From a virus (lineage: Duplodnaviria > Caudoviricetes), in the IMG/VR virus record IMGVR_UViG_3300049988_000286, positions 224,001 to 288,000 of that record: 64,000 nt of DNA; one strand, 5' to 3'. The translations under genes and the position numbers were made by a program. Shown in pieces: positions 8,675 through 63,464 of this stretch. Each line of letters begins with the position of its first letter. The stretch's first letter is position 1. A model generated the notes under the pieces. That model was not told the origin of the DNA, did not search any database, and saw only the letters and a list, made by a program, of their open reading frames with translations.

Positions 8675-9721
8675 TCAAAAGGAGATAAATTCGTCGCCGC
8701 TATGAACGAAGCTACCAGACAAATCCCACTTCATCGGTCCTACCAGATTATCCAGCTTCTTATCGATGATGACTTCCTCCATGGCGGCATGATCGAACGG
8801 CAAATCCTTGAACCACTTCGGCAGATGCGGCTCATCTATGGGGTAAGCGATAGAATCCATCTTCGACACCGTGGGGAGAAGCTTGCAGACGATGATGCGC
8901 GACCCATCGGTGATCCTCATCGAGAACTTGTCGTTGTGGATGTCGAGCATCTTGTTCCAATTCTCCGACGCACGGACGTGGCCCGGCACCGTCGATTTGG
9001 CCTTCTCACCCTTTCGCCGAGCATCAGTAAGCCCCATCGAGGCCGATCGAGCCATGATGCGACGATACTTGGTCAAGTTGCTGACCTTCTTCGGACTGCC
9101 CTTCTCCCACGCGGGTCTAGCCTTGAAGGCAGTCCTGAACTCGCGAATGTCACCGATGATCTGATCCTGACTGGTGCCTTGCAGGACATCCATGAGGACT
9201 TGCTCAAGGAAGGCTTGCATGAACTTCGGCGTATCAGCACGCTTGAGGTCGAGCCCCATCGCTTTCAACTTACCGGGCTTGTTGCCAGTGTCGAGGCGCT
9301 TGCCTTCAAGATCGTAGATCAACCCGCCGTATTTCTTCTTCTTGATGAAGAGCATCCGGGAGGCCACCAACTCACGACCAGCCGCGATGATCGCACCACG
9401 CTTCAACGATGTGTTGAAAGTGCGCGCCATGAATTCGGGGAAGGTCGCGTTGACGTTATCCGCCACCTTGTCATAGATGGCAATGTAATCCTCACGCGTG
9501 CAATCCTCACCCATCATATAGGCGGCAGAGAAGTAGCACGAATCGGTATCCGCGTAGCAGATCGCATCACCGGTATAGTCGTACTCACCAGTGAGTTCCT
9601 GATTCACCTGCGCATTCATATGCCGAACAATGGAACGACCCGTGAGGGTCACTGATTGTCCCATACGAGGGTCGGCCAGCCTCATTGCCTCGTTAAGGAG
9701 CGCCCCGTACAGCGAGTTAAG
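8675..9721 (-). CDS. polB: family B DNA polymerase, C-terminal subunit, exon 2
   Basis: LNSLYGAL (motif B, second half), YADTDS (motif C), KKKYG, KAMGLDLKRADTP. Confidence 0.92.
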   Translation of the reverse strand, partial: LNSLYGALLNEAMRLADPRMGQSVTLTGRSIVRHMNAQVNQELTGEYDYTGDAICYADTDSCYFSAAYMMGEDCTREDYIAIYDKVADNVNATFPEFMARTFNTSLKRGAIIAAGRELVASRMLFIKKKKYGGLIYDLEGKRLDTGNKPGKLKAMGLDLKRADTPKFMQAFLEQVLMDVLQGTSQDQIIGDIREFRTAFKARPAWEKGSPKKVSNLTKYRRIMARSASMGLTDARRKGEKAKSTVPGHVRASENWNKMLDIHNDKFSMRITDGSRIIVCKLLPTVSKMDSIAYPIDEPHLPKWFKDLPFDHAAMEEVIIDKKLDNLVGPMKWDLSGSFVHSGDEFISF

Positions 9722-9971
9722 CCATGATGTTCCAAGCCGATCGCCACCGACTTGTTGTCCTTGTGGACAACTGCATGTTGCCATGCAGAGCAGACCATAT
9801 CATAGACTCTTCGTGAGAGCCCCCGCCCGTTTCGGCCCGCTTGGGCCTACTCGCTTTCGCGATGGTCGTTGAACCTTCCCTTGCGGGCTTGGCTGCTGAT
9901 TGTCCCAGAGGGATGTCCCAGCAATTAGAGCGGTTATTCGATGGCCGTCGCCGACCAAAGCCTCCAGATTA
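9722..9971 (-). mobile_element. group I intron (IA-like, no homing endonuclease), 250 nt
   Basis: Exon 1 ends in U (CTT) and the intron ends in G. P AATTGCTGGGA, Q AATCAGCAGCC, R GTTCAACGACCA, S TGATATGGTCTG; P7 GACCA/TGGTC; GNRA-capped stems. Splicing restores RKIL-LNSLYG. Confidence 0.93.
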
Positions 9972-10154
9972 AAGGATTTTTCTCGCTTGCTGTCGTTGGT
10001 CCCAGAACCCGATCTGCCCTGCTACCCATTCACGCTTCTCTTCGATCGCTACGATCTTGCCGTCTTGCAGTTCCAGCCCATGCTCCGACATCAACTCGGC
10101 AATGGCGCTGGCATCTCCTGCTTCGATCAACTGACCAAGCTTCTCAATTTCCAT
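9972..10154 (-). CDS. polB: family B DNA polymerase, C-terminal subunit, exon 1
   Basis: MEIEKLG...FWDQRQQARKIL = fingers helix preceding LNSLYG; GGAGAG SD. Confidence 0.88.
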
Positions 10155-10273
10155 ACGGTGTCTCTCCACTCATCAGAGACAATCTACTTAACTTCGGCTC
10201 GTTCCCACAATATGATTCGCTATTGTCTTGACAGTTCCCTCAACTCTGCTACACCTGTTGAGAAGGAACCTCT

Positions 10274-10813
10274 ATGCCCATTATCCTCATTGGCTGTTTC
10301 ATCGGTGCCGTGCTCGGTGTGGGCGCGATGAGTCTATGGACGGGTATGAAGGCGCACCCCAAGGCGGTGGCGATCATCTGGGCCATTTCCTCGTTCATCG
10401 CCCTCATCTGGCACCCTGTCCCCAAGGGCCGGGATTTCCACGCCGTGGGGATCATCGGTCAGTCCGAGGCAACCGTGGTGGCGGCGATCGGTGAGGCGCA
10501 GACCTGTTCACCGTTCTTCGACGAGATCGACCCCGACAGTGGGAAGACCGCGTGCTACTATCAGGGCAACACGACGGTCATCTACCAGCATGGTCGCTCG
10601 ATCCGGATCACGAGTGGTGCTCTCGATGGCGTCCCCTACGCGACCTCACCGGAGTATTACGCCGTGGTTACCGAGCATCTTGGTTTCGATGCCAGCCGCC
10701 CCGTGGTGGCCACCATCGACAAATTGGTTTGGCAGATCGACGGCGGCACGCTAACCGTGTTGTCGAACCAGCGTCTCGACACTGCGGGGATCACCATTGA
10801 CGCCACATCTTGA
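10274..10813 (+). CDS. membrane protein with periplasmic domain
   Basis: Two N-terminal hydrophobic helices; preceded by a TTGACA promoter at ~10228. Confidence 0.7.
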   Translation: MPIILIGCFIGAVLGVGAMSLWTGMKAHPKAVAIIWAISSFIALIWHPVPKGRDFHAVGIIGQSEATVVAAIGEAQTCSPFFDEIDPDSGKTACYYQGNTTVIYQHGRSIRITSGALDGVPYATSPEYYAVVTEHLGFDASRPVVATIDKLVWQIDGGTLTVLSNQRLDTAGITIDATS

Positions 10814-11255
10814 TCAACTGGTTGATCTTCCGTCGTGGGATCATGGGCTGAAGATTGACCGGCAGATCGATGATGTGCGCCGGGAAGTCCAGAGTGCGAT
10901 CGGTGGTTTGGAGCCCGGTCGCGAGGCCGATGACGTGGATCAGGCCTTCGACAATTACATCGCCACGGTCGATAAGCTCCGTGACCTCTACGCAACGGCA
11001 GAGGGCATTTTCCACACTGTGCGGGAGGCCTACGATGAGGCGATCACGATCGCGGATCGGTTGTTCGAACTCCAACCATGGCGGATGACGATCTCCGATA
11101 CCTCACCTCATTATAAGGCCTTGCGCGGAGCACCGCCGATGTGGCTTGAGGAAAACCTTCACGACGCCGTGGAGATATTCCCGCTCGCTGGTCACCTCAT
11201 AATTGTTTTCGGCAACGAGGCCGACATGACGCTCTTTCGCCTCAAGTATGCCTGA
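10797..11255 (+). CDS. family B protein with N-terminal coiled coil
   Basis: Ends IVFGNEADMTLFRLKYA. Confidence 0.7.
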   Translation: MTPHLDQLVDLPSWDHGLKIDRQIDDVRREVQSAIGGLEPGREADDVDQAFDNYIATVDKLRDLYATAEGIFHTVREAYDEAITIADRLFELQPWRMTISDTSPHYKALRGAPPMWLEENLHDAVEIFPLAGHLIIVFGNEADMTLFRLKYA

Positions 11256-11817
11256 ACGTGAAGCCCGAGGCGGTGGTTCCCATCGTCTGGGGGCGTGACA
11301 TTTCGATATCGCTCGCTTGGGGGATGGGCTGCGACATTCCAATATATTCGCTCCGCAGCGCGACTTCCTTGACGATCACGAAGGGTGCCGGGGTGGCGTT
11401 TCCGAGCGGCGTCGATCCCAGCCACACATCGTTGGTTTGTCGGAACAGGAGATCGCCGTGCCGAATGGGTGTGGTGAGGCGGCTGATACCCATGTGAGAG
11501 ACGAGAGTGCGATCCTCTCCCGTGTAGCGCAGAATGGCTCCGGTCTGTGGAGGGGCGACGGTGATCTCCCCCATGGCGTCGGAGAACTGCCCGGCTGCTT
11601 CGAGGGCACGACGTTGATCCGCGAGACGGCAATAGGCCAGTAGCGCATTGCGGTACCACGGCAGGGGCACAGCGGCGGTTTCAATGTCACTGGGGCCGAT
11701 GATGCCAAGATCGATCTGGGTCATCATGGCGGAGATTTCTGGGCGGCGCTGCGCTTCACTGCGAAGCAACGCCACGGGGTCGCGCCCGTTCATACCGACG
11801 ATCTGATTAGGTTGCAT
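11242..11817 (-). CDS. hypothetical protein
   Basis: GGGAG SD before MQPNQ. Confidence 0.6.
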   Translation of the reverse strand: MQPNQIVGMNGRDPVALLRSEAQRRPEISAMMTQIDLGIIGPSDIETAAVPLPWYRNALLAYCRLADQRRALEAAGQFSDAMGEITVAPPQTGAILRYTGEDRTLVSHMGISRLTTPIRHGDLLFRQTNDVWLGSTPLGNATPAPFVIVKEVALRSEYIGMSQPIPQASDIEMSRPQTMGTTASGFTFRHT

Positions 11818-11893
11818 GGTTCTCCCATAAACAATTAGGACCGCACCCGAAGGCACGGCCCTAATATGGAGGTTCGGAGTCTAGCGTGCAATA

Positions 11894-12343
11894 TTACACT
11901 GCCATTAGGAGTGCCGCCACATCGTTCTGCCGCTGCATCTCGACCTCTAGCTTCTGCTCGACCATCTCGTTGTATTGGTCGCGAGTGCCGGAAGTCATGA
12001 AGTTGTAGTTGTCGAGGACTTCTGGCATGTCGGGGTATAGGTTGGTGCCGATCCACACTCCGCCGCCAACGGCGTAGAGTAGGTCTCCATCACGGACCTC
12101 TAGGCCGAGATGGTTGTCATCGGCGGGGATCATGACGGTCGGGCCATCGTATTCCAAGATACCACCAATCTCGTCGATCGCCCTGTCCTCCATCGTATCC
12201 GGGAGTAGGTGATCGAGAACGCTCATCGTGACGCGGTTGCGGGCACTCGCGAGGGTGCGCACCAGCGATTTGAAGGCGGTGGGGGTGTCGCCACCGATCG
12301 TGGTGGTCGGGGTATCGAGGTCTGCGGTTGCCTGTGCAAACAT
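11894..12343 (-). CDS. hypothetical protein
   Basis: GGAG SD before MFAQA. Confidence 0.65.
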   Translation of the reverse strand: MFAQATADLDTPTTTIGGDTPTAFKSLVRTLASARNRVTMSVLDHLLPDTMEDRAIDEIGGILEYDGPTVMIPADDNHLGLEVRDGDLLYAVGGGVWIGTNLYPDMPEVLDNYNFMTSGTRDQYNEMVEQKLEVEMQRQNDVAALLMAV

Positions 12344-12462
12344 GGTAGTATCTCCTATACTGGCAAGCCCGCGTTGTGGGGCTTTCTGAATTAGTATAGG
12401 TATAACTACCGGGAGCGAACTATAGTTCCCTAATTGCAACTTTTATTTGATTATTTTAGAAC

Positions 12463-12639
12463 ATGGAACGAGGAAGTGGACCAATGAACAAGCAGCAAAG
12501 AACAATTCGGCCTAGCACATATAGTGAAAATGGCTCACAATTGACAAGCTACAATAATCTCATAACACCGCAGCAACCGACAATTGTCCGAAGACTGGTA
12601 TGCGGTGATCAAGAGAATGCCCTATTCGGGCTTTGCTGA
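12463..12639 (+). CDS. possible degenerate family A (GD motif) small protein, 58 aa
   Basis: Own translation ends RRLVCGDQENALFGLC; below the ORF-track cutoff. Confidence 0.3.
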   Translation: MERGSGPMNKQQRTIRPSTYSENGSQLTSYNNLITPQQPTIVRRLVCGDQENALFGLC

Positions 12640-12735
12640 AAGTGTCTACCACACGCCGGGGCGTGATCGAGAAACATGATCCTACCTACACTCGCTCCAT
12701 GCCCCCCGCAGGGACCGAAGCCCCTGCGAAGCCCG

Positions 12736-13344
12736 TTAGTCGATCAGCTTCTCGGCGCGGAGAACCGCAACCTCCTCATCCGCGAGGGTGATCGTCGTGT
12801 TGAAATTCGTGGCGGTCAGGTCGTCCTTCAAGGACGCGCGCTGGCGCTTGAGCACCGCGATGAGGTCGGCGATGAACCCCTTGGTCTCCGCTCCCATGAT
12901 GTCGATGGTGAGCGACTCGGTGCGGACCGTGTATCGCTCACGGCTTTCCGGCGCGTCCAGATCGGCGCGCATCTTCGCGACCTTGCGATCAAGGGCGGCG
13001 AGATCATCGATCGGCGTGGCGTCGTCGAACAGATTCTCCGGCTTCGCGACCGCAGTAAGGCGCAGAAGCTGCTCATCGATCGCGGCGACGAGCGCCAGAT
13101 TGCCATCGACGCCCGCCGCGCTGTTGGCGATGCCCACCATGGCGCGGATGCGGTAAGCAGCGGTGATCGCCCCCTGCTGGCGCTCCAGCGCGGCGAAGAA
13201 GGCGACGCGGGTCGCATCCGCCGCCTCGGTAGCAGTGATCTCGCTGTAGGCGGAGATCGAAGCGCGGGGGTTGGGCGTAATGGTCTTCGCCACCGCGAGC
13301 AAGGCACGCGACAACTCCGACGCCTTCTTGAGAGTGATCTTCAT
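12736..13344 (-). CDS. helical/coiled-coil hypothetical protein
   Basis: Strong GC3 bias; own TTGACA promoter (~13390) and a downstream hairpin. Confidence 0.8.
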   Translation of the reverse strand: MKITLKKASELSRALLAVAKTITPNPRASISAYSEITATEAADATRVAFFAALERQQGAITAAYRIRAMVGIANSAAGVDGNLALVAAIDEQLLRLTAVAKPENLFDDATPIDDLAALDRKVAKMRADLDAPESRERYTVRTESLTIDIMGAETKGFIADLIAVLKRQRASLKDDLTATNFNTTITLADEEVAVLRAEKLID

Positions 13345-13427
13345 GGTCCGGTCCCCGTTCGAATATCGTTTCGCCGTCCATCTAGACGGCGGGCAGAAGG
13401 ACTGTCAACCCGCCATCTAGAAAATAA

Positions 13428-15158
13428 TCACGCCTTATTCTGCGCCGCCGTAATCGCTAGTGCGAGGTCGGCATCGACCTCAATCCCGTCCTTGAGTTTT
13501 GCATAGAAGCCCTTCTTCTTCTGCATGGTTTGGCGGTCCGAGTACCACTTCGCCAAAAGCTGCGGGATGATCCCCTCCTGATCGGTTCGGAAGATCGTCC
13601 CGTTAGCAGAGATGCACAAATTGCTCCCCGGTCGGAAAATGAAGTCGTATAATTGGCGTCCCGACATCACCTTGGTGGTCCCGTCATCGAAATCGATCGT
13701 GATCGGTGCACCATCCTTGGCCATCATGTGATCAACCTCCAAGGCCGCGAAGATGCCATCCCACGCTTCTGCGCGAGGCACCTTGTTGGCGATCCGTTGG
13801 TCAACGAGCGCCTTTGTCTCGTCGAGGCGAATCTGGCCCACGATCGTCTCCGGAGAGAGGTTGAGGGCGCGGATAGTCGAGGGATACAGGGAGTTGATGT
13901 CCACGGCGGCGACGTGATCGTGCAAGCCCATCTTGGGCTTGGCCACATAGGCACCCACCACCGGCTTTTTCTTGTTATCAAAGCCGCCCTCCTCGTCGTC
14001 CTCATCCTCGTCGTCCACCTCCTCCTCGATCACCTCCTCGACCCGTGGTTTACGATTGGGGGCAACGAGACCCATCTCGTGCATTTCAAGGATGATGGCC
14101 TGTTCTACCAGCGCCACCGATCCCATCGTCGTCTTTAGCTGCACGCAGTTGACGTGGGCGATCTGATTGGCGAGTTCGATGAAGCGCTTCTTCTTGTCGA
14201 TCTTGACCAGCAGGGCAACGTCCTGTCGGGAGTATTCAACGAACTTGTAGAAGTCCTTCTTGTACAGGTCGTCGAGGGTGCCCTCATAGGGGATTTTGTT
14301 GTCCCCGACTTCGACTTCACCGATATAGTCGAGGCGATAGCTGTGTTGCTGCTGGGGGTTGTGCTTCTGATAGAGTTCCAGATAGTCGAGGTGGACGCGC
14401 CCCATCAGGTCATAGGACTCGTGGTCCTTACCGAATTTGGGAACCATGCGCTGGCGCGGCTTCTGTCGCCATAGACATAGGTCTCGCGTAGCATCCTCGT
14501 CGATAATCCGTTTGATGCGGTTTACGATGTAGGGGATATCGAACAGCGTCGAGTTCCAGCCCGAGAGCACATCCACGTCCTCGATGATCTGCATAAAGGC
14601 GCGCAGAAGTTCCCGCTCGTCATCGAACAGGAAGGTGTCGGGGAACTGATCGCAGATCGCCTGTGCCTCCTCGGTGGTAAGCGTCGGAGGCTTGAGCGCG
14701 AGGCAGATCAATCGATCAACATGCGAGAGGTCGATCGAGATGGCGGTCACAGCATTGAACGGGTCATCGACGGGCGCGTAGCCGCGCTCCGCATGATAAC
14801 CGGTTTCGATATCGAAGAAGCCCACGTTGAGGACGGGCGCGTTGACCCCCTTGTAGTGCTTCTCCAGTGCGCGGAAGACGGGATTGATATCCGACTCGAA
14901 GACTTTGTGCCGGGGTTTACCGTTACGATCGAGATCGTTGGTGAACCGTCCCAATTCCTTGCGGAATTTCTGACCGTCGTTGGTTTTGAAAATCTTGCAC
15001 GCATCGCCGTACATGGATCGATGAGAGCCCGCCGGATGCGAGTAGTAAAAGACATGCTCGCAATCATGTTCGACGAGGTGGCGGACGCCATTCACGTCAC
15101 GCTCGGCAACTTGAATGACGTTCCGCTTGGCGTTGTATAGGGCATCGATGTAAGACAT
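13428..15158 (-). CDS. polB: family B DNA polymerase, N-terminal subunit (3'-5' exonuclease plus motif A)
   Basis: FFDIET (ExoI), GWNSTLFDIPY (ExoII), YSRQDV (ExoIII), DINSLYPS (motif A); ends inside the fingers at WYSDRQTMQKKK. Confidence 0.95.
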   Translation of the reverse strand: MSYIDALYNAKRNVIQVAERDVNGVRHLVEHDCEHVFYYSHPAGSHRSMYGDACKIFKTNDGQKFRKELGRFTNDLDRNGKPRHKVFESDINPVFRALEKHYKGVNAPVLNVGFFDIETGYHAERGYAPVDDPFNAVTAISIDLSHVDRLICLALKPPTLTTEEAQAICDQFPDTFLFDDERELLRAFMQIIEDVDVLSGWNSTLFDIPYIVNRIKRIIDEDATRDLCLWRQKPRQRMVPKFGKDHESYDLMGRVHLDYLELYQKHNPQQQHSYRLDYIGEVEVGDNKIPYEGTLDDLYKKDFYKFVEYSRQDVALLVKIDKKKRFIELANQIAHVNCVQLKTTMGSVALVEQAIILEMHEMGLVAPNRKPRVEEVIEEEVDDEDEDDEEGGFDNKKKPVVGAYVAKPKMGLHDHVAAVDINSLYPSTIRALNLSPETIVGQIRLDETKALVDQRIANKVPRAEAWDGIFAALEVDHMMAKDGAPITIDFDDGTTKVMSGRQLYDFIFRPGSNLCISANGTIFRTDQEGIIPQLLAKWYSDRQTMQKKKGFYAKLKDGIEVDADLALAITAAQNKA

Positions 15159-26321: not shown

Positions 26322-28580
26322 TCACCTCTTGGTACGCCGCAGTTGAAGGTTACCGTTCTTCATAGAGACCGTGACCTTGCCGCCATCGCGAAGTTCTCCC
26401 AAGACGAGCATTCGGGAGAGGGGCTTCTTGATCGAATCGGCGATCACGCGCTTCATCGGTCGCGCCCCCATCGCGGGATCGTAGCCCGCCGACACCAACC
26501 ACGACATAGCATCATCGTTGACCACCAGCTTGACCTTGCGATCCGCGATCATCATCCGGAGATCGTTGACGAACTTGTCCGCCACCGACTTGATGTGATC
26601 CTGCGTCAAGGCAGAGAAGCCCATCTGCGCATCGAGGCGGTTACGGAACTCGGGTGAGAAGATGCGGTTGATCGCCGCTTCGGCTCCCGAGTTGTTCACG
26701 CTCGCGGTGCCGAACCCGATCGTGGCGCGCTGGCTCTCACGCACACCGGCGTTCGAGGTCATGATCAACCAGACGTTGCGGAACGAGACCGTCTTGCCGC
26801 CAGAGTTGGTCAGCTTGCCGTTATCCATCACCTGCAACATGATGTTGAAAATGTCCGGATGGGCTTTCTCGATCTCGTCGAGGAGAAGGACGCAATGCGG
26901 CGAATGCTCCACCGCGTTGGTGAGAAGGCCAGAGCCACCGCCGCCCTCATCATAACCGACATAGCCCGGCGGGGCACCGATCAGCTTCGACACAGAGTGC
27001 TTCTCCATGTATTCCGACATGTCGAACCGCAGCATGGGGATACCAAGCGTTGCGGCGAGTTGCTTCGCCACCTCGGTTTTACCCACACCGGTAGGGCCGG
27101 TGAAGAGGTAGCTGCCTTGCGTCTTGTCCCCCTCTCGCAACCCCGCACGAGCGATGAACACCGCATCGGTGAGCACAGAGATGGCGCTGTCCTGCCCGAA
27201 AACGACCTTGCGAAGATCGTCTTCCAGATTGGCGAGTTTTGCCGTCTCATCGTCCTTGATGGTGTGCTCGGGAATTTTGGCTACCCGCGACACCTCGGCT
27301 TCAATATCGACCAGATCGATCGAGCGACTGGTCACCGCATCGTTGACGGCGCGGCGCGCACCAGCCATGTCGATGATGTCGATCGCCTTGTCGGGGAGAA
27401 GGCCCGTCGTCACATAGCGGTGGGTCAACTCCACAGCGGCGTCAAGGGCAGCAGCGGTATAGGTGACGCCGTGGTGCTCCTGATAGGATTTCGCCACCCC
27501 GTGGATGATCTTCTTCGCGTCCTCGACACTCGGCTCCTCAACGGAAATCTTACCAAAGCGACGCAGGAGCGCGCGGTCCTTCTCGAAGTACTTGCGGAAC
27601 TCCTCAAAGGTCGTGGAGCCGATCAGGCGCAAGGAACCATCGGAAAGGGCGGGCTTGAGCATGTTGGCGGCGTCCATCGAACCCTGCGAGGTCGAGCCCG
27701 CACCCATGATCATGTGGATTTCGTCAACGAACAACACGGACTTGGGGATGAAGGCCAGTGATTTGATCACCTTGGTGACCCGCTCCTCGAAGTCGCCGCG
27801 ATACTTCGTGCCCGCCAGCAGCGCACCGATGTCGAGCGAGAAGATTACCGTCCCTTCCATCACCTTCGGGACTTCCCCCGCAATGATCTGGTGAGCCATC
27901 CCCTCGACAATCGCCGTCTTACCCACGCCGGGATCACCGACGAGGAGGGGGTTGTTCTTCTTCTTGCGGGAGAAAATCTGGATCGCCTCCGCGACCTCCG
28001 TCGAGCGACCAATTAGGGGATCGATCTTCGCCTCTGCGGCCTTCTTGTTCAGGTTTGCGCAGTAGAGGGCGAGGAACGACTCGGCCTCCGCGCGGCTCTT
28101 GACCTCACCCGCCGGGGCATCGGCGACGTTAACCGTCTTGGTGCCCTTCGCTTGCGAGACGAAGAGCTTCACGTCCGCTTCCTTCATCCCCGCCTTGGAC
28201 AAGAGGATGAGGGCGAAATGATCCTCTGGCTTTTCGCGCAGCATGGCGATGAGGAGTTCAACACCGTCACCGCGACCCTTGCTCGACAGCTTGCCGGTCG
28301 CGGTAGCGCGGAAGACCAGCGTCTCGAACATCAGGGTGGGGCGGGGGTTGCCGGTAGAGGTCTCGATCATCCCCGATTCGCAAAAGTCCTTCAAGCGCTG
28401 AAGGATCGGTTTGGGATCGATACTCAACCCTTCGAAGATACGCGCCACATCTTCCTCATTGAGGAGGGATGCGAGGAGGTGCTCCAAGGTGGCGTAGTGG
28501 TGATTATAGTCGCGCGCCAGCTTCATCGCGCGCAGGGCAATCCGCTCTAGCGGTTCTTCGGCGCGCTGTTTGTCGGCCAT
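26322..28580 (-). CDS. clpA: ATP-dependent Clp protease ATP-binding subunit ClpA
   Basis: Clp N-domain (ATLEHLL), two AAA+ modules (GDPGVGKT/FVDEIH; GPTGVGKT/LLDEIEKAH), IGF ClpP-docking loop. Confidence 0.95.
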   Translation of the reverse strand: MADKQRAEEPLERIALRAMKLARDYNHHYATLEHLLASLLNEEDVARIFEGLSIDPKPILQRLKDFCESGMIETSTGNPRPTLMFETLVFRATATGKLSSKGRGDGVELLIAMLREKPEDHFALILLSKAGMKEADVKLFVSQAKGTKTVNVADAPAGEVKSRAEAESFLALYCANLNKKAAEAKIDPLIGRSTEVAEAIQIFSRKKKNNPLLVGDPGVGKTAIVEGMAHQIIAGEVPKVMEGTVIFSLDIGALLAGTKYRGDFEERVTKVIKSLAFIPKSVLFVDEIHMIMGAGSTSQGSMDAANMLKPALSDGSLRLIGSTTFEEFRKYFEKDRALLRRFGKISVEEPSVEDAKKIIHGVAKSYQEHHGVTYTAAALDAAVELTHRYVTTGLLPDKAIDIIDMAGARRAVNDAVTSRSIDLVDIEAEVSRVAKIPEHTIKDDETAKLANLEDDLRKVVFGQDSAISVLTDAVFIARAGLREGDKTQGSYLFTGPTGVGKTEVAKQLAATLGIPMLRFDMSEYMEKHSVSKLIGAPPGYVGYDEGGGGSGLLTNAVEHSPHCVLLLDEIEKAHPDIFNIMLQVMDNGKLTNSGGKTVSFRNVWLIMTSNAGVRESQRATIGFGTASVNNSGAEAAINRIFSPEFRNRLDAQMGFSALTQDHIKSVADKFVNDLRMMIADRKVKLVVNDDAMSWLVSAGYDPAMGARPMKRVIADSIKKPLSRMLVLGELRDGGKVTVSMKNGNLQLRRTKR

Positions 28581-29411: not shown

Positions 29412-29981
29412 TTAGCGCTTGCGGGGCCGCTTGACTACTTTGGCAGCGGTGATGTGAACACTCGATCCCCGCAAAATCACTTCCTGCTGCTGCTCGTAGC
29501 GCTCAAACTGGTACAGGATGTCGTCAAAGTATCGCGGATCGATTTCTGCGGGTTTGGTCTTTAGCCACGAGAGAACGTCTGACACGCAGAGCACGATCGC
29601 GCGGCGGTTCTTCTGCACGTCTGCGGAAAACACCACTCCGTAGCGCCCACCATAGTCTTTCGCAAACTCCTCGGCGACGGTGAAGTTGGGTGACCACGAC
29701 TGCATCTTCTTCAACGCGGTCTTGACCTTGCCGGATTGAAAATCCTGCACATCATCGAACCCCACCCCTCGGTAGAGGGTGCCGGTCAGAGTGTCGCGCG
29801 CCGCGCCGGGAACGCGCGCGGCGATTGCCTTCATCGCATCATAGTATGGCTTTGGTGAGAAACGCTCACCCTCGTCATTGATCAACGACATGGCATCGCC
29901 ATTGAGCCAGTCACCTACCGTCCACAGGGTGGAAGTGAGATCGTCGTCATGATCTTCGAGTAGGTTGATCCAGTTGCGCAT
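29412..29981 (-). CDS. ADP-ribosyltransferase-like protein, R-S-E clade
   Basis: TLYRG, QSWS, QQEVIL; N-terminus MRNWINLLE; TAAATA-N4-ATG. Confidence 0.75.
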   Translation of the reverse strand: MRNWINLLEDHDDDLTSTLWTVGDWLNGDAMSLINDEGERFSPKPYYDAMKAIAARVPGAARDTLTGTLYRGVGFDDVQDFQSGKVKTALKKMQSWSPNFTVAEEFAKDYGGRYGVVFSADVQKNRRAIVLCVSDVLSWLKTKPAEIDPRYFDDILYQFERYEQQQEVILRGSSVHITAAKVVKRPRKR

Positions 29982-29996
29982 CCCCTATTTAGGGGA

Positions 29997-30335
29997 TCAG
30001 CGTCCCGCCAACGGCTTCATGACCTGATCCCGCACCGCGATCTGGCCCGCTCGGGCGATGGCGCGGCACTGCTCGACCTCGCCCCGGAAGGCGATGCGGC
30101 GAATGGCTTCGAGATAGGGGCGTGCAATGTTGTCGGCGAGGTTGCGCTGATCGCTCGCCTGATTCCACGTCATACGCCCGCCGCGATCGACATCCATCCG
30201 ATAGGTCAGCGCTTTGAAGTCACCGACCAATCCCTGTAGATCGTTATAGGCCGTGCGGCACGCAATCACGCGCTCCCGCGATGGCTCCGGGAGATCGCGG
30301 TAGGCGAGTTGAAGAAGGAGAGCCGCGATCACCAC
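29997..30335 (-). CDS. hypothetical protein
   Basis: Operon-coupled ORF. Confidence 0.6.
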   Translation of the reverse strand: MVIAALLLQLAYRDLPEPSRERVIACRTAYNDLQGLVGDFKALTYRMDVDRGGRMTWNQASDQRNLADNIARPYLEAIRRIAFRGEVEQCRAIARAGQIAVRDQVMKPLAGR

Positions 30336-30493
30336 GGCTGATAGTCCTTGTCAAATTCCTTCATCCGAATAGAATCGGATGCAACCTCGGCCCCCTGATA
30401 GGTCAGAGAAACTCGAAGATAGCCGTTACCGTCGATGACCTGTCGCGACAGGTTGATATCCAGTCGGCCAATGATCGTCTCTGCGTCTTCCAT
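30329..30493 (-). CDS. small hypothetical protein (paralogue of 44107-44277)
   Basis: YLRVSLTYQGAEVASDSI. Confidence 0.6.
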   Translation of the reverse strand: MEDAETIIGRLDINLSRQVIDGNGYLRVSLTYQGAEVASDSIRMKEFDKDYQPW

Positions 30494-30534
30494 AATCGTT
30501 CTCCCAGCCCCGTGTAGCACGACTGGGAGAAAGA

Positions 30535-31293
30535 TCAATTACGAACTGCGCGCAGACGCTCCTGCTGCTCCGGAGAGAGTTTGGGATAGGTGGGGTTGAT
30601 CTCGATGAAGAGATCGAACGACCCACCCTCGCGCTTCGGCATCCCCCTGCCGGGCACCCGCAGCCGAGTATGGTGGCTCGTCCCCGCTGGGATCGTGACG
30701 GAGACCGTGGTACCCGCGATCGTCATGACATCCACTTTGGTCCCAAGGACGAGATCGAGCACATCGACGTTCTCGACAACGAGGAGATCGCCCCCACCGT
30801 AGGCGAAGCGCTCATGCGTCTCGAAGACGACAAAGACATAGAGGTCGCCGGGCGGGAGGTCGCTGAACTGACGACCTCCCTCACCCTCTACACGCAGTCT
30901 CTGACCCTCACGAATCCCTTTGGGGATCGAGAGAGTGACGATGCGATTATCAACCTCGAAGGTGAGTTCATGCCCCGCATAGGCTTGTTCGAGGGTGATC
31001 TCCACCCTGACTTGCGAATCATGGTTCTGGCGCGGCGGCGGGGCGAAGTCTTGGAAGTGCCACGTAAAGCCCGGCCCGAACGGATTATCTCCGAACGGGT
31101 GATGCTGCTGTTGCTGCGGCTGGGGCTTCGTCAACGTCTCGTAGGCGGTCTGGATTTCACGGAACTTAACCTTGCTCTCCTCGGAATCGCCATTGCGATC
31201 CGGGTGATGCTGCATGGCGAGTTTCCGATACGCGGACTTGATGGTCTTCTCGTCCGCGCCGGGATCGATCCCCAGAACCTGATAAGCGTTCAA
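30535..31293 (-). CDS. dnaJ: DnaJ/CbpA-type chaperone (no Zn finger)
   Basis: J-domain with HPD, G/F-rich linker, C-terminal PGDLYV and LRVPGRGMP. Confidence 0.92.
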   Translation of the reverse strand: MNAYQVLGIDPGADEKTIKSAYRKLAMQHHPDRNGDSEESKVKFREIQTAYETLTKPQPQQQQHHPFGDNPFGPGFTWHFQDFAPPPRQNHDSQVRVEITLEQAYAGHELTFEVDNRIVTLSIPKGIREGQRLRVEGEGGRQFSDLPPGDLYVFVVFETHERFAYGGGDLLVVENVDVLDLVLGTKVDVMTIAGTTVSVTIPAGTSHHTRLRVPGRGMPKREGGSFDLFIEINPTYPKLSPEQQERLRAVRN

Positions 31294-31294
31294 A

Positions 31295-31657
31295 TCACTT
31301 TCCCTTGAGGCACGCCTTAGCGTCTTTGTCGTTGTTCATCGCGTCATATACACAAAGATAGACATCAATGACATTATTAAGTTGATGGGCAACATCGTTG
31401 TACATGCGATCCGTGACAACCCCGGCGTTGGTCTGGCCCGCCACGGTGGGATCGGTGAGGGCAGGAAGCTGACCGGCCTTCTTCGCCAACGAGGCGGGGA
31501 GTTCGGGCACCTTCGGCGGCGGGGCTTTGCCGATCGTCTCACCATTGATGATGATTTCGCTCGGTGTCGAGATGTTGGTGGGTCGCGGCTTGTCGAGCAC
31601 GCTGGTCATGCAGCCCGAGAGCAGCAGGGCGGCGAGGACGATGATTGACTTCTTCAC
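31295..31657 (-). CDS. o-spanin-like outer-membrane lipoprotein
   Basis: KK + hydrophobic + lipobox LLSGC, Pro-rich; follows the i-spanin candidate. Confidence 0.75.
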   Translation of the reverse strand: MKKSIIVLAALLLSGCMTSVLDKPRPTNISTPSEIIINGETIGKAPPPKVPELPASLAKKAGQLPALTDPTVAGQTNAGVVTDRMYNDVAHQLNNVIDVYLCVYDAMNNDKDAKACLKGK

Positions 31658-31661
31658 AGGT

Positions 31662-32093
31662 TCACTCCTTTGGTCCAAGAGCGCGGATGGCGTTGCGCTC
31701 GCTCAAAATCTGCGGAGTGAGGCTGCACTCCTCGGACTTCCACATCGGCACAGTATCCACGACTGTGGCGATCTTGTCCGCTTTCTTCTGCTCCACCTTG
31801 TCGCGCTTCTCCGCCTCCTTCACCTTGTCCTTGGCGAATTCGTCCACGCCCTCTTGTGACTTCTTCTCAATCGCGCGGTTCACGACATCACGCTTGCCGA
31901 TCTCCTGCCTGACCTTTGACAAGGTGGCATTGACGCCACGGTTGAACCCGCGCGCCTCGATCGCCCGCACGCCAGCGCGGACAGCCAAGAGGAGCATAAC
32001 CACTCCGATCGCGACGAGGATGTATTTGCCATAATGCTTGAGGAAGCCTTTGACACGGAGCAGAAGAGCAGTGGCGGTAACGGGGTCGATCAT
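31662..32093 (-). CDS. i-spanin-like protein
   Basis: Single N-terminal TM helix, coiled coil, C-terminal Cys; TAAATA upstream. Confidence 0.75.
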   Translation of the reverse strand: MIDPVTATALLLRVKGFLKHYGKYILVAIGVVMLLLAVRAGVRAIEARGFNRGVNATLSKVRQEIGKRDVVNRAIEKKSQEGVDEFAKDKVKEAEKRDKVEQKKADKIATVVDTVPMWKSEECSLTPQILSERNAIRALGPKE

Positions 32094-32179
32094 GAGAAAT
32101 CTCCTTTCCGGTATTTAGTCCATACCTTTCTCTTGATATTACGCAGTTCTATGGTAGGCCTCTGGTGAGAGGACGAATA

Positions 32180-32653
32180 ATGCGTTTCACCATCTGGACC
32201 TTCTTTGGTCTGATCTTTTTCGGCGTAGTGGCCATGAACGCGACCAAATCGTTCGCGCCATTGGAGCGCCTGTACGTCAACCTCGGCTTCATCACCGATC
32301 CTAACACGATCATGACCAACATCGGAACTGTGCAGTGGCGCGGTGAAGAGCGAACGTTGCTGGTCTCGGTCAGCAACACGACGAGCGAGCCTTACCATAG
32401 GTTCAACCTTGACTGTGAGACACACGAAGGACGTATCTTCTCCATTCTAGATCGATCCGGCATCCGTCCTGACCGACAGAATGATGTGCGGGTCTACCGG
32501 CTATCAAATGCGGCGATCTCCAACGCGAAGTTCTGCGTCACTGCCGATGTGGAGAGGGGCAAACCCACACCATGGCTTCCCGGAATGGAGCCGCGTGATA
32601 ATGATGATCGGTTGGCGATCACGGATGCAGAGATTCCCGAGGACATTGAATGA
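32180..32653 (+). CDS. membrane-anchored hypothetical protein
   Basis: N-terminal hydrophobic helix; GAGGA SD. Confidence 0.7.
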   Translation: MRFTIWTFFGLIFFGVVAMNATKSFAPLERLYVNLGFITDPNTIMTNIGTVQWRGEERTLLVSVSNTTSEPYHRFNLDCETHEGRIFSILDRSGIRPDRQNDVRVYRLSNAAISNAKFCVTADVERGKPTPWLPGMEPRDNDDRLAITDAEIPEDIE

Positions 32654-32659
32654 GGTGTG

Positions 32660-33215
32660 TTCGCTAGCGCTCACACGACCTATGATCACTCATTTGTGTT
32701 CAGCAAGCTTCACACAAACAATATGATCAACTGACAATACAGAGATGAGGTCATCATCCTCGGGAAGAATGGAACTTTCTATCCCCCTCCATGACCGATA
32801 CGCTTTTACAAGCAGACAATCTCTCGATTGCTCGACCATGGAGGGGGAAAGTAGCATCATCCTGCGGTTGTGAATGGCTCTCGCTGGCAGCTTCGGCGTC
32901 TATAGCCTAGCAGGTGGTCGCCCGTGACCCTGCATTACTGCCCTTTCCTGACACCTTTCGGTATCACGACGGTTATCTCATTTGAGAAGCGATACCGCCA
33001 AGCCGCGAATAATTGACCGGGCGGGATCGAAGAGTTGTCGGTTAGACATAGCTCTTCTCTTTACATGTGTCTCTTGTGTCCACCCTTGGTGGGACCGGCA
33101 ACACTCCCCGGTCGGCTACTCCGCCTAACGCCTTCCCGGAACACGGCCCCCTAGAGCGCCTTCAAAGTCCATCGAGCATGTCACTGATCAGGCGCGAGGC
33201 CCTTGAGTAATTTGA
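32660..33215 (-). ncRNA. candidate large structured ncRNA (~550 nt)
   Basis: No ORF >=60 aa; TTGACA at 33245-33250 pointing into it; many nested stems, with G.U pairs and a GAAA tetraloop favouring the minus strand. Confidence 0.55.
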
Positions 33216-33308
33216 GTCCTGTTGTAGAATCCTGCTCCGAGTCGTGTCAAATACATTTGAGACAATAGCCCTAAATAGAGGGAACTATTTCTTGAGAGTA
33301 CCCCGAGC

Positions 33309-34082
33309 GTGAACGCGATCATCGTAAGTCTTCAAAGTTTGATTGTGACCGTCCGCCGGAACTTCATGTCCAGCGTGGCGACCATGTTCATGCTTATCGC
33401 GGTGATCGTCGTTTGGAGCGCACGCGGCAACATTGCGACGTTCCTTGAGCGTAACCCCACCGCCGCGCAGGAGAAGGATCGTTTCGACCAGTCGATCGTC
33501 GCCGACGCACAGATCAACGAGACGTTGGAGCACATCCGCGCGACCATCAACGCCGATCGTGTGCTGATCCGCCAGTTCCACAATTCGAAAACCGATCTCA
33601 CGGGGCTGCCGTTCGCGAGCGTGTCCACGACCTATTACGCGTTCGGGCCGGGCATCACACTGACACCGGGAAGCTTCAACCCCTTCCCGCTTTCGACCGT
33701 GAACGAGGTTCTCGCGCAGATGTTTCAGCCCCATACGGAGCCCCAGTGTGCGATGACCACCACCTCGCAGATTCGCAACTCCGCCTACCAGCGGCTCCTT
33801 ATCTCGAACGGCGTCGCCCTCTTCTACTCGTGCCCGATCATGAACCTCCGTGGGCAACCGATCGGCTTCATCCTTGCCAGCTACCTTTCTGCGGAGAAGA
33901 AGCGGCCCAAGGACGACGCCATCAAGGCAATCATCGGCAACACCGGTGAGCGGGTGGTAGGCTACCTAGACGATGTGATCGCCAAGGAGAAGAAGCCTTG
34001 GTGGCAAGCGATCTTCGGCGGCAGTGAGAGGAAGAAGATCGAGCCACCGGTGTCATTGGAAACATCCGAAGTGAATAAATAA
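33309..34082 (+). CDS. T4 gp t-like holin (TM helix plus periplasmic GAF-like domain)
   Basis: One TM helix, ADRVLIRQFHN and YSCPIMNLRGQPIGFI (cf. T4 T YSCPYFNLDNIYAGTI); TAAATA at ~33272; near the spanins. Confidence 0.65.
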   Translation: MNAIIVSLQSLIVTVRRNFMSSVATMFMLIAVIVVWSARGNIATFLERNPTAAQEKDRFDQSIVADAQINETLEHIRATINADRVLIRQFHNSKTDLTGLPFASVSTTYYAFGPGITLTPGSFNPFPLSTVNEVLAQMFQPHTEPQCAMTTTSQIRNSAYQRLLISNGVALFYSCPIMNLRGQPIGFILASYLSAEKKRPKDDAIKAIIGNTGERVVGYLDDVIAKEKKPWWQAIFGGSERKKIEPPVSLETSEVNK

Positions 34083-34118
34083 TTTATGCAAAACTCGCTC
34101 GCCAAACCGGAGACCAAG

Positions 34119-34286
34119 ATGAAGGCCTCTACCAAGTTGCTCATTTCTGGCCTCCTCACCGTTCTGGCGGTCATTCTCGCGGGGACGATCTTTGATGGAC
34201 TGGGTGTCCTGTTTGGCCCTGAAGCGGCTGGTATGTCGGGCATCGCGGGATTGATCGCATCCTTCCGTCTCCTCTCCGGCACCTGA
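34119..34286 (+). CDS. small two-helix membrane protein
   Basis: Two hydrophobic segments directly after the holin. Confidence 0.55.
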   Translation: MKASTKLLISGLLTVLAVILAGTIFDGLGVLFGPEAAGMSGIAGLIASFRLLSGT

Positions 34287-35286: not shown

Positions 35287-35814
35287 ATGTCGAATTGGGA
35301 ATACGTCGTGTGGGATATCGAAGCCAATGGCTTCCAACCTTCGACGATCTTCTGCATCTGTATCACTGATCTCTTGACGCAAGAGCAGCGGATGTTCACC
35401 GGTGACGAAATCGCCGATGCTTGTGTCTTGCTCCAAGAGGCCAAGATGATCGTGGGTCATTACATCCGGGGTTACGACTGCCCCGTCATCGAGCGCCTCA
35501 CCGGGGGTATGATCAAGTTCAAACCCGAGACGATCGTTGATACCCTCGATATGTCGAAGAAGCTGACCTCGCATAAGAAGCACGGGTTGGAGTTCTGGGG
35601 TGAGCGTTTCGGACTGCCTAAGATGCCCTCGCCGTTGTTTGAGCGCTACACCCCGGAGTTACTCCCGTATTGTCGCCGCGACGTGGACATCAACGTCAAG
35701 CTGTTCTTCCACCTGCTCGAAATCTATCTGGAGGCCCCTGTGGCAGAGTTTCGCAACCATGAGCGTCTTGCGCTCTTTGTCGAGGCCTTCGCGGCCCATA
35801 TCGCCAATGGGTGA
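35287..35814 (+). CDS. stand-alone DEDDy 3'-5' exonuclease (T7 Pol A exo-like)
   Basis: VWDIEANG, GHYIRGYD, DTLDMS, YCRRDV. Confidence 0.85.
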   Translation: MSNWEYVVWDIEANGFQPSTIFCICITDLLTQEQRMFTGDEIADACVLLQEAKMIVGHYIRGYDCPVIERLTGGMIKFKPETIVDTLDMSKKLTSHKKHGLEFWGERFGLPKMPSPLFERYTPELLPYCRRDVDINVKLFFHLLEIYLEAPVAEFRNHERLALFVEAFAAHIANG

Positions 35815-43811: not shown

Positions 43812-43886
43812 AGGCCATTAGCTACAATTGGTCAGAGCGGCGGTCTCTTAAATCGCGGGTTGTGGGTTCGAGTCCCACATGGCCTA
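43812..43886 (+). tRNA. trnK: tRNA-Lys(CTT), CCA not encoded
   Basis: AGGCCAT/ATGGCCT acceptor, loop CT-CTT-AA, GTGGG TTCGAGT CCCAC T-arm. Confidence 0.92.
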
Positions 43887-43909
43887 CTCAACCCTCTCTC
43901 TACTTTGAT

Positions 43910-43986
43910 GGGTCCGTAGTTCAATAGGTTCAGAACAACCGGTTCTTACCCGGTATGTCCCCGTTCGAGTCGGGGCGGACTCACCA
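43910..43986 (+). tRNA. trnK: tRNA-Lys(CTT), CCA encoded
   Basis: GGGTCCG/CGGACTC acceptor, ACCGG TT-CTT-AC CCGGT, TTCGAGT T-loop, ACCA. Confidence 0.9.
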
Positions 43987-43998
43987 TCTCATCTTTGT

Positions 43999-44075
43999 GG
44001 GCGCATAGTTCAATAGGTCCAGAACAACCGGTTTTTACCCGGTATGTCTCCGTTCGAGTCGGAGTGCGCTTACCA
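43999..44075 (+). tRNA. trnK: tRNA-Lys(TTT), CCA encoded
   Basis: GGGCGCA/TGCGCTT acceptor, ACCGG TT-TTT-AC CCGGT, TTCGAGT T-loop, ACCA. Confidence 0.9.
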
Positions 44076-62717: not shown

Positions 62718-63464
62718 ATGATAACTTCCGGCCTCCATCACGGCGACTGCATCGCGTTGATGAAACAAATTCCAGACCAGTCGATTGACCTGATTCTTGC
62801 CGATCTCCCCTACGCTACCACGTATGCGGAGTGGGATCGTCTCATCCCCATGGAGGCGCTGTGGGGCGAATATCTGCGCATCGCAAAGCCCGACACCGCG
62901 ATCGTCCTCACCGCAAATCAGCCCTTCACCTCCATGCTGGTGATGAGCCAGCCCAAGCTGTTCCGCTGCGAATGGGTGTGGGACAAGACGAATGCGAGCA
63001 ATTTCGCCAATGCGAAGAAGCAGCCGTTGAAGCAGCACGAGACGGTGTTGGTCTTCTCGAAGAAGCCAACGCGGTACTTTCCCCAGATGGTGCAGGGAAA
63101 GCCCAACCACAAACAGGGCGCAAGCAGGAGCAATCGCTCGGACACTAGGTTGATCTCGGGTAGGAGCCCTGATGATCTTTCCGGTCTCAAGTACCCAAAG
63201 ACGATCTTGAACTTCCCCAAGCATTCTAGCCAAGTCGGTCTTCATCCCACCCAGAAGCCCGTGGCACTATTCGAGTACCTGATCCGGACCTATAGCGCGG
63301 AGGGCGACCTTGTGCTCGATAATTGCATCGGAAGTGGCACCACCGCCATCGCGGCCATCAACACGCGACGACGGTGGATCGGGATGGAGCAAGATCGAGC
63401 CTACCACGAGGTGGCGGAACGCCGCATCGCCGAACATCAGCGCGACGATGGGATCACCGTTTAG
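62718..63464 (+). CDS. DNA adenine/N4-cytosine methyltransferase (beta class), orphan
   Basis: LHHGDC, DLPY catalytic motif, HPTQKP, VLDNCIGSGTT AdoMet motif. Confidence 0.92.
   Translation: MITSGLHHGDCIALMKQIPDQSIDLILADLPYATTYAEWDRLIPMEALWGEYLRIAKPDTAIVLTANQPFTSMLVMSQPKLFRCEWVWDKTNASNFANAKKQPLKQHETVLVFSKKPTRYFPQMVQGKPNHKQGASRSNRSDTRLISGRSPDDLSGLKYPKTILNFPKHSSQVGLHPTQKPVALFEYLIRTYSAEGDLVLDNCIGSGTTAIAAINTRRRWIGMEQDRAYHEVAERRIAEHQRDDGITV

Follow-up and report, generated by a model that had tools for sequence, protein, structure and literature searches.

The window analysed here is a 64,000-nucleotide stretch of phage DNA, bases 224001-288000 of a 499,572-bp IMG/VR virus record. The phage encodes a family B DNA polymerase, a ligase, ClpB and DnaJ. 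Genes around the locus of interest were called with a codon-usage score trained on the long open reading frames (ORFs) of the genome, giving a minus-strand block (29412-32093), a plus-strand gene (32165-32653, stop codon at 32651-32653) and a further plus-strand block starting at 33309. The gene at 32165-32653 is real: compared with contigs of a related strain it has 12 differences, of which 9 are at the third codon position. Between it and the second plus-strand block lies a gap (32654-33308) with no credible ORF. The first-pass annotation had taken this for the largest non-coding gap, situated between the lysis genes. In our crude gene call it is the second-largest gap of the window, exceeded by that of the tRNA cluster (three tRNAs detected with Rfam, 43812-44072), and the sole basis for lysis genes is a weak Rz-like spanin match at 31662-32093 (E 1.9e-5).

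The minus-strand genes include those for a DnaJ-like protein of 252 amino acids (30535-31293) and a ClpB of 752 amino acids (26322-28580). Elsewhere in the window, the family B DNA polymerase on the minus strand (8675-15158) is split into an exonuclease/N-terminal part (13428-15158) and a C-terminal polymerase part (8675-9784). A group I intron occupies 9771-9981 (Rfam, 69 bits), and the two parts are about 3.4 kb apart, with further ORFs in between.

The gap contains a stand-alone gene for a highly structured non-coding RNA of about 560 nt, running from 33216 to about 32654 on the minus strand, with both start and 3' end predicted. Upstream of it on the same strand are a -35 element TTGACA (33250-33245), an 18-nt spacer ending in GATTC (33231-33227) and a -10 element TACAAC (33226-33221), placing the probable RNA start near 33215. 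The -35 element, noticed before as a TTGACA pointing into an ORF-free stretch, is kept in all four genomic copies of the RNA described below, as is the spacer; the -10 element is TACAAC except in one copy, which has TAATCT. The same layout, TTGACN-N13-GATTC-TAnnnn, occurs at a fixed distance before homologues in related megaphages (loci L034-L037 and L043), where the -10 words are GATAGT, GATACT, TATAGT, TACTGT and TATTAA. This layout with its 18-nt spacer is common to the phage clade, and a simple sigma-70 scan misses it as the last -10 base is not T. Back to back over the -10 region of the RNA is a plus-strand promoter-like site, TTGAGT-16-TAGAAT (33203-33230), that points to the gene at 33309-34082 and away from the RNA body; its TAGAAT is also kept in all four copies. 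No intrinsic or canonical terminator was found after the RNA gene.

The RNA does not belong to a catalogued family. Using Rfam 15 at gathering thresholds, only the group I intron and the tRNAs matched in the window, with nothing in the gap, and relaxing the search of 32400-33500 to E<=10 (4227 models) returned only chance-level partial matches, namely sul1 (24 bits, cut-off 36) and snoRNA and miRNA models. Eleven loci with distant members of the family likewise gave no Rfam match at E<=1, and ARAGORN found no tRNA or tmRNA in 32000-34000. The models of the large phage RNAs ROOL and GOLLD failed to match the window's copy even at E<=10 or the distant members at E<=1, and Rfam models of OLE, HEARO, raiA, RNase P, tmRNA, 6S, SRP and the small self-cleaving ribozymes had no match. 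Intron_gpI was also without a match in the gap, although the same search recovered the intron at 9771-9981 and so works in this window. Full-text literature searches revealed no description of such an RNA family. The earlier failure to assign the RNA to a known class is thus borne out.

The RNA is not unique within its own genome. A search of the phage genome with window positions 32874-33251 identified three further copies at 71-73% identity over the shared core, and a four-copy nhmmer profile found exactly four, at 103.8, 256.7, 338.2 and 470.6 kb, each in its own ORF-poor gap. No protein is shared among their 4-kb flanks, and the surrounding genes are divergent once, convergent twice and co-directional once. 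In contigs of the related strain, the covered parts of the element (32661-32770, 32964-33148 and 33178-33250) contain zero differences, set against 12 and 22 in the two flanking ORFs (12 in ORF 32165-32653), which argues for purifying selection on the RNA element. Among public sequencing runs, three phyllosphere metatranscriptomes yielded no contigs over 32000-34200, and a single run of unknown kind covered that region, a result that has no bearing on expression.

Comparison of the four copies indicates which strand is functional. RNAalifold gave -104.0 kcal/mol for the minus strand versus -77.7 for the plus strand, with 34 of 107 versus 22 of 94 pairs changed on both sides. Folded singly, the window's copy reached -216.9 kcal/mol on the minus strand (z -4.35 against shuffles) versus -187.1 on the plus strand (z -2.60). 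The four-copy minus-strand fold has 52 G-U against 7 A-C combinations, a count that leans towards the minus strand as the fold was predicted on it. The promoter, the lower fold energy and the occurrence of G-U where the plus strand would have A-C together argue that the minus strand is the functional one.

A wider family was recovered with covariance models. Model R1, built from the four genomic copies, was run on five related megaphage records reached via their polymerase and gave weak but full-length matches in three; it scores the window's copy at 360.9 bits. From conserved words of the distant members we derived the pattern AAAGGCAC...AGAGGA...ATAACCGT and searched viral contigs, metagenomes and bacterial genomes, which recovered true members along with many matches by chance or in coding DNA that were discarded by eye. 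Other searches returned nothing: two strict DNA patterns drawn from the four genomic copies did not match any viral contig, a blastn search with the gap as query gave no match among 50,697 phage records, and core model R2, by which independent members score 78-137 bits, did not match the whole RaK2 genome at E<=10. The family is defined by AAAGGCAC/AAGAGACAC, hairpins Pa-Pb-Pc and AUAACCGU, and the window's copy has these in that order.

Covariation among homologues, proposed at the outset as a check, is strong. Core alignment A6, a seed alignment of 23 sequences that includes the window's copy, folds into three hairpins with 22 pairs, 19 of which are changed on both sides. Pairing is retained in 90.7% of alignment cells versus 67.4% in shuffles and 27-48% with partners slid, and the covariation score of 0.653 was reached by none of 500 shuffles and compares with at most 0.155 for slid partners. 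Promoter, fold energy, G-U pairs and covariation in 23 homologues therefore agree with the large minus-strand non-coding RNA that the first-pass annotation had proposed; the element is real, and so are the strand assigned to it, the conserved fold and the family.

Read from 5' to 3' on the minus strand, the window's copy starts with a 'type A' 5' domain (33216-33076) that is confined to this genome's four copies and shows few compensatory changes, since only four sequences exist. RNAalifold of these copies places in it a long-range helix UUACUC/GAGUAG (33210-33205 with 33121-33116), a GGACUUUGAAGG segment (33170-33159) followed by a hairpin, the segment GUGUUCCGGGAAGG (33144-33131), a GACCGG...CCGGUC hairpin (33113-33093) and a CCACC/GGUGG hairpin (33092-33080). 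The family-wide core follows (33075-32969; alignment A6), comprising the word AAGAGACAC (33075-33067), hairpin Pa (GAGAAGAG...CUCUUC with an inner UGUC/GACA; 33059-33029), hairpin Pb (AUCCCGCC/GGCGGUAU; 33027-32992), hairpin Pc (32987-32976) and, at its end, the invariant AUAACCGU (32976-32969). A mini-ORF after the GAGGAG-like arm of Pa was considered and rejected, its 'start' being AUG, GUG, CUG, ACG, GCG or CCG depending on the member.

Downstream of the core, compensatory changes among the four copies define a GNRA-capped hairpin GAUACC-GAAA-GGUGUC (32965-32950) and a three-way junction (32943-32884) closed by GGCAG/CUGCC, with one arm GCAGG-GUC-ACGGGC-GAC-CA-CCUGC that bears a conserved CGGG loop (32933-32910) and another GGC-UAUAGAC-GCC (32907-32895). 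The junction is recognisable in distant homologues. The 3' module (32863-32752) is bounded by a direct repeat of AGGAUGAUG (32863-32855 and 32760-32752) and contains a long hairpin that encloses two small ones, the 5' arm being rich in pyrimidines (32854-32836) and the 3' arm in purines (~32793-32774); the distal stem of the long hairpin covaries freely and its base keeps UUCUCYCC/GGRGAGAA-like sequence. Last comes a 3' tail of lower GC content (32751-32654) that abuts the stop codon of the convergent gene and holds a long hairpin with UUUGUGU/ACACAAA at its tip (32728-32684) and a terminal hairpin with AGCGCUAGCGAA in its loop (32680-32654). In 18 members, mean GC content is 0.41 in the 45 nt after the second repeat versus 0.57 in the RNA body. 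The terminal hairpin loops carry tandem AGCGA-type words, AGCGCUAGCGAA here and AGCGAAGCGAG elsewhere, and such words end phage and bacterial members alike (L036, L037, L041, L034 and L055). Scanning the whole genome for hairpins with GCGA-type loops gave no useful information, the genome being GC-rich.

Most stems that had been read by eye from the single sequence hold up. Compensatory changes occur in GAAGAG/CUCUUC (33052-33029), in CCACC-AAG-GGUGG, in GAUACC-GAAA-GGUGUC, in all three helices of the junction (GGCAG/CUGCC, GCAGG/CCUGC and GGC/GCC) and in the long C-rich/G-rich stem (32854-32774), which AGGAUGAUG, correctly noted as present twice, flanks. Two pairings fell away. The 3' arm of the proposed GACCGGG/CCCGGUC lies in the loop of the hairpin at 33027-32992, whose eight pairs covary across 23 sequences, and the GGUAUCGC/GUGAUACC pairing that was thought to compete with the GNRA-capped hairpin is absent from the other copies.

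Every other member ('type B') has an H-type pseudoknot immediately after the promoter in place of the type A domain. Both of its stems vary in a compensatory manner, stem 1 as GGAG/CUCC, GGAAG/CUUCC, GGGCC/GGCCC or GGGCAU/AUGCCC and stem 2 as GGGG/CCCC, GCGG/CCGC, GAGG/CCUC or GGGU/ACCC, and the helix closing the whole type B domain also covaries. By inspection only, short words (GGACUU..GAGG and AGG-hairpin-CCGGGA) are found in both forms in differing order (33076-33216 on the minus strand versus L036:1400-1590 on the plus strand), so the 5' domain may have been rearranged or permuted between the types. A differing 5' architecture over a retained core would suit a function that depends on three-dimensional fold.

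The repeat-hairpin-repeat module characterises the family as a whole. Across 18 members, the flanks of the long hairpin have a longest common word of 6-11 nt; its first copy starts 13-39 nt ahead of the stem and its second 9-47 nt beyond it, with most distances on either side around 15-25 nt. The word agrees within each member and differs between members (for example AGGUUGAUGA, AGGAUUAG, AAUGAAUG, GGGUAUAUUC and AGGUACAG). Against shuffles, the combined Fisher p for the repeat pair is 7e-11 over the 18 members, a value that is indicative only as the members are related. In type B, ACUC precedes the first repeat and AUCU the second. We found no consistently placed complementary partner for the pair inside the RNA, and pairing of the repeat copies with each other was not consistently better than in shuffles (mean z -0.64; 6 of 17 worse than the mean) under a nearest-neighbour model, which treats tandem G-A pairs poorly. 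No consensus fold could be derived for the 3' module, given the poor quality of its MAFFT alignment.

The element might also be considered as single-stranded DNA, in which the fold would form in DNA and expose a strand-specific priming or promoter signal whenever the region is single-stranded. Comparable signals are the single-strand origins of rolling-circle plasmids and the Frpo/ssi sites of conjugative plasmids. Folded single-stranded DNA would also be expected to give the G-U asymmetry (G-T in DNA), the AGCGA-type terminal-loop words recall the CS-6 (TAGCGT) loop of ssoA origins, and the bacterial copies described below sit on plasmid or ICE-like DNA beside orphan methylases. We nevertheless consider this reading very improbable: a double-stranded promoter stands at a fixed upstream distance across the family, pseudoknots and GNRA loops are typical of RNA, and the main carriers are double-stranded DNA megaphages with a family B polymerase and no single-stranded transfer stage.

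Occurrence of the RNA among related phages is uneven. By model R2, two to three copies are present in four to five of the related megaphage records, including G004 (608 kb, three copies), G002 (561 kb, two), G001 (415 kb, 72% complete, two) and the 240-kb fragment G164 (two), and one copy in each of three (G162, G163 and G165). None is present in G003 and G005, which are complete relatives, or in G161, a 70% complete fragment. As two complete relatives have no copy, the RNA is dispensable in this phage clade. In a rough tree built from the core, the four copies of this genome group together as a single clade and the three of G004 are scattered.

Bacterial carriers include the isolate Microvirga arvi BT689, with two copies (R2) on contigs of 22.6 and 45.7 kb, and metagenome-assembled genomes (MAGs) named Caulobacter, Caulobacteraceae, Methylobacterium and Rhodoblastus. 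The RNA is sporadic, occurring in 3 of 151 genomes of the M. arvi family (R2). Neighbours of the bacterial copies are a resolvase and an integrase-like gene (L089); DUF6878, DUF6915 and an IS481-like gene (L090); RepC and DUF6878 (L091); an HTH-Dam methylase and a type ISP restriction enzyme (L092); and an HTH-N6/N4 methylase and an SLT transglycosylase (L093). The bacterial copies are on mobile DNA, which fits their sporadic occurrence, and we conclude that this is an uncatalogued RNA family of alphaproteobacterial mobile elements, spanning megaphages, plasmid-like contigs and integrase islands.

A partner protein was not found, the flanks differing among copies. DUF6878 is beside the RNA only in Microvirga and is absent from the phage and the other carriers, and ORFs beside bacterial copies match the phage only via DNA methylases. 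The phage has paralogous N6/N4 DNA methylase genes in the window (62718-63464, plus strand) and at 153.3, 159.5, 160.4 and 485.1 kb of the genome, and in a contig of a Caulobacter MAG an HTH-fused relative is situated 3.7 kb away from the RNA.

Positions of the RNA are conserved between phages. The window's copy lies upstream of DnaJ and ClpB on the same strand, and the same order is found in G002 and G001, with ClpB at 48-54% identity; the copy is therefore a positional orthologue in three phages. The gene at 35287-35814 (175 amino acids) adjoins other RNA copies in G004 and G001. Such conservation of position argues that the RNA is old and inherited in place rather than recently inserted. 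The shared order upstream of DnaJ-ClpB would also be expected of a long cis-regulatory leader of the downstream chaperone genes, an explanation to which we give next to no credence, given that a real plus-strand gene (32165-32653) intervenes between RNA and operon and that unrelated genes adjoin both the other three copies and those in bacteria.

Inheritance in place also bears on whether the element is an unrecognised self-splicing intron, a mobile ribozyme or the guide RNA of a mobile nuclease or recombinase, as conserved positions are unlike those of a freely mobile element. In size and complexity it compares with group I and II introns, a group I intron exists elsewhere in the window, and the element is multi-copy and sporadic in bacteria. 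Yet no gene is interrupted, the flanking ORFs being complete, separate and unrelated; the RNA has its own promoter; the search that found the window's group I intron gave no Rfam intron, ribozyme or HEARO match; and its neighbours do not consistently include a nuclease, recombinase or reverse transcriptase. We judge an identity of this kind highly improbable. A role as a reverse-transcriptase template was rejected, the phage having no RVT_1 gene.

Placement of the copies along the phage genomes raises the main rival, a replication origin, which the first-pass annotation had itself named as an alternative. The minimum gaps between copies are 0.16, 0.23 and 0.48 of genome length in this phage (G000), G004 and G002, wider than chance (p 0.042, 0.10 and 0.036; Fisher 0.007) under a null of uniform placement on a circle, in which circularity is assumed for linear records. 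Two copies are also 144 kb apart in fragment G164. These spacings would be accounted for if the four copies were the phage's replication origins and the transcript a structured pre-primer. In ColE1/pMB1, RNA II is a promoter-driven non-coding pre-primer transcript of about 550 nt on mobile DNA, and T4 has several origins with origin transcripts. By this account a persistent hybrid would form near the purine-rich tract and lower-GC stretch, and the RNA module would be a protein-independent or helper-dependent origin that lets plasmids and integrase islands of the host clade replicate.

Several features fit such origins. As for ColE1 RNA II, a promoter (33250-33221) lies about 0.5 kb upstream and no ORF occurs down to 32654, a feature that is not family-specific, and the length of about 560 nt is similar. 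As in RNA II and the T4 origin transcripts, a terminator is missing and a conserved purine-rich tract precedes lower-GC DNA (0.41 versus 0.57); as in T4, several dispersed copies are found in a T4-like phage with a family B polymerase. That several types of mobile element carry the RNA, an integrase/resolvase island among them, points the same way. An antisense partner resembling RNA I of ColE1 was not seen, and the sole plus-strand promoter-like site in the 5' part points away from the RNA body. Set against an origin role, no GC-skew turning points occur at the copies and gene orientation around them is mixed, in contrast to ColE1 and T4 origin transcripts, and two complete relatives lack the RNA. 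One bacterial, plasmid-like copy is 4.5 kb from a RepC initiator and so is not needed as an origin there. The fold, conserved by covariation, is far more elaborate than those of ColE1 or T4 origin transcripts, and with its pseudoknot and rearranged 5' domain it exceeds the known needs of a hybrid-forming primer. On balance, we regard an origin role as unlikely, if by no means far-fetched.

We favour a trans-acting folded RNA of mobile elements, by analogy with ROOL and GOLLD. This preference is based on the strong-looking promoter of the RNA's own, a covarying fold with pseudoknot and GNRA loops, a 5' domain that can be rebuilt while the core is kept, differing neighbours, and occurrence on three kinds of mobile element. 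Such an RNA would be made soon after the element enters a cell and would act as an RNA-protein particle or an RNA-only assembly, serving establishment or host takeover and possibly acting as a decoy or scaffold, with several copies serving dosage. Transcription, the transcript ends and the trans-acting role are inferred. Some observations count against the trans-acting reading: wide copy spacing is not predicted for a pure trans-acting gene, this model leaves the repeats on either side of the long hairpin unexplained, and the missing partner protein, missing terminator and absence from G003 and G005 also weigh on it. Taking all parts jointly, we put at roughly 55% the probability that this is a stand-alone gene of about 560 nt with a sigma-70-like promoter, from an uncatalogued family, whose folded RNA acts in trans.

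ROOL and GOLLD, the closest systems, belong to the large 'ornate' RNAs found in bacteria, prophages and phages (Weinberg et al. 2017, PMC5737381), and cryo-EM has revealed them as homo-oligomers (PMC12286853). They resemble this RNA in being 0.5-0.8 kb long with many helices and pseudoknots, and in being stand-alone genes on phages or mobile DNA without an obligatory neighbouring protein gene. They differ in their hosts, which are Firmicutes and rumen bacteria rather than Alphaproteobacteria. Unlike ROOL and GOLLD, this RNA is present in several widely spaced copies per phage genome and is not beside tRNA genes, the nearest in the window being about 10 kb away.

Large intricate RNAs of bacteria and phages are few, comprising RNase P, tmRNA, group I and II introns, OLE, GOLLD and ROOL, and each class has revealed new biochemistry or, recently, RNA-only assemblies. 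The RNA described here is a further class of that size; it covaries strongly, has a pseudoknot domain and contains a repeat-hairpin-repeat module of an unusual kind. Were the copies origins with a pre-primer, they would account for multi-site initiation of replication in giant phage genomes, and would extend a ColE1-like principle to giant phages and Alphaproteobacteria. The RNA occurs in several copies in half-megabase phages and is common to these and to plasmids and islands of plant-associated Alphaproteobacteria, and it is open to experiment, since a cultured isolate, Microvirga arvi BT689, is among its carriers.
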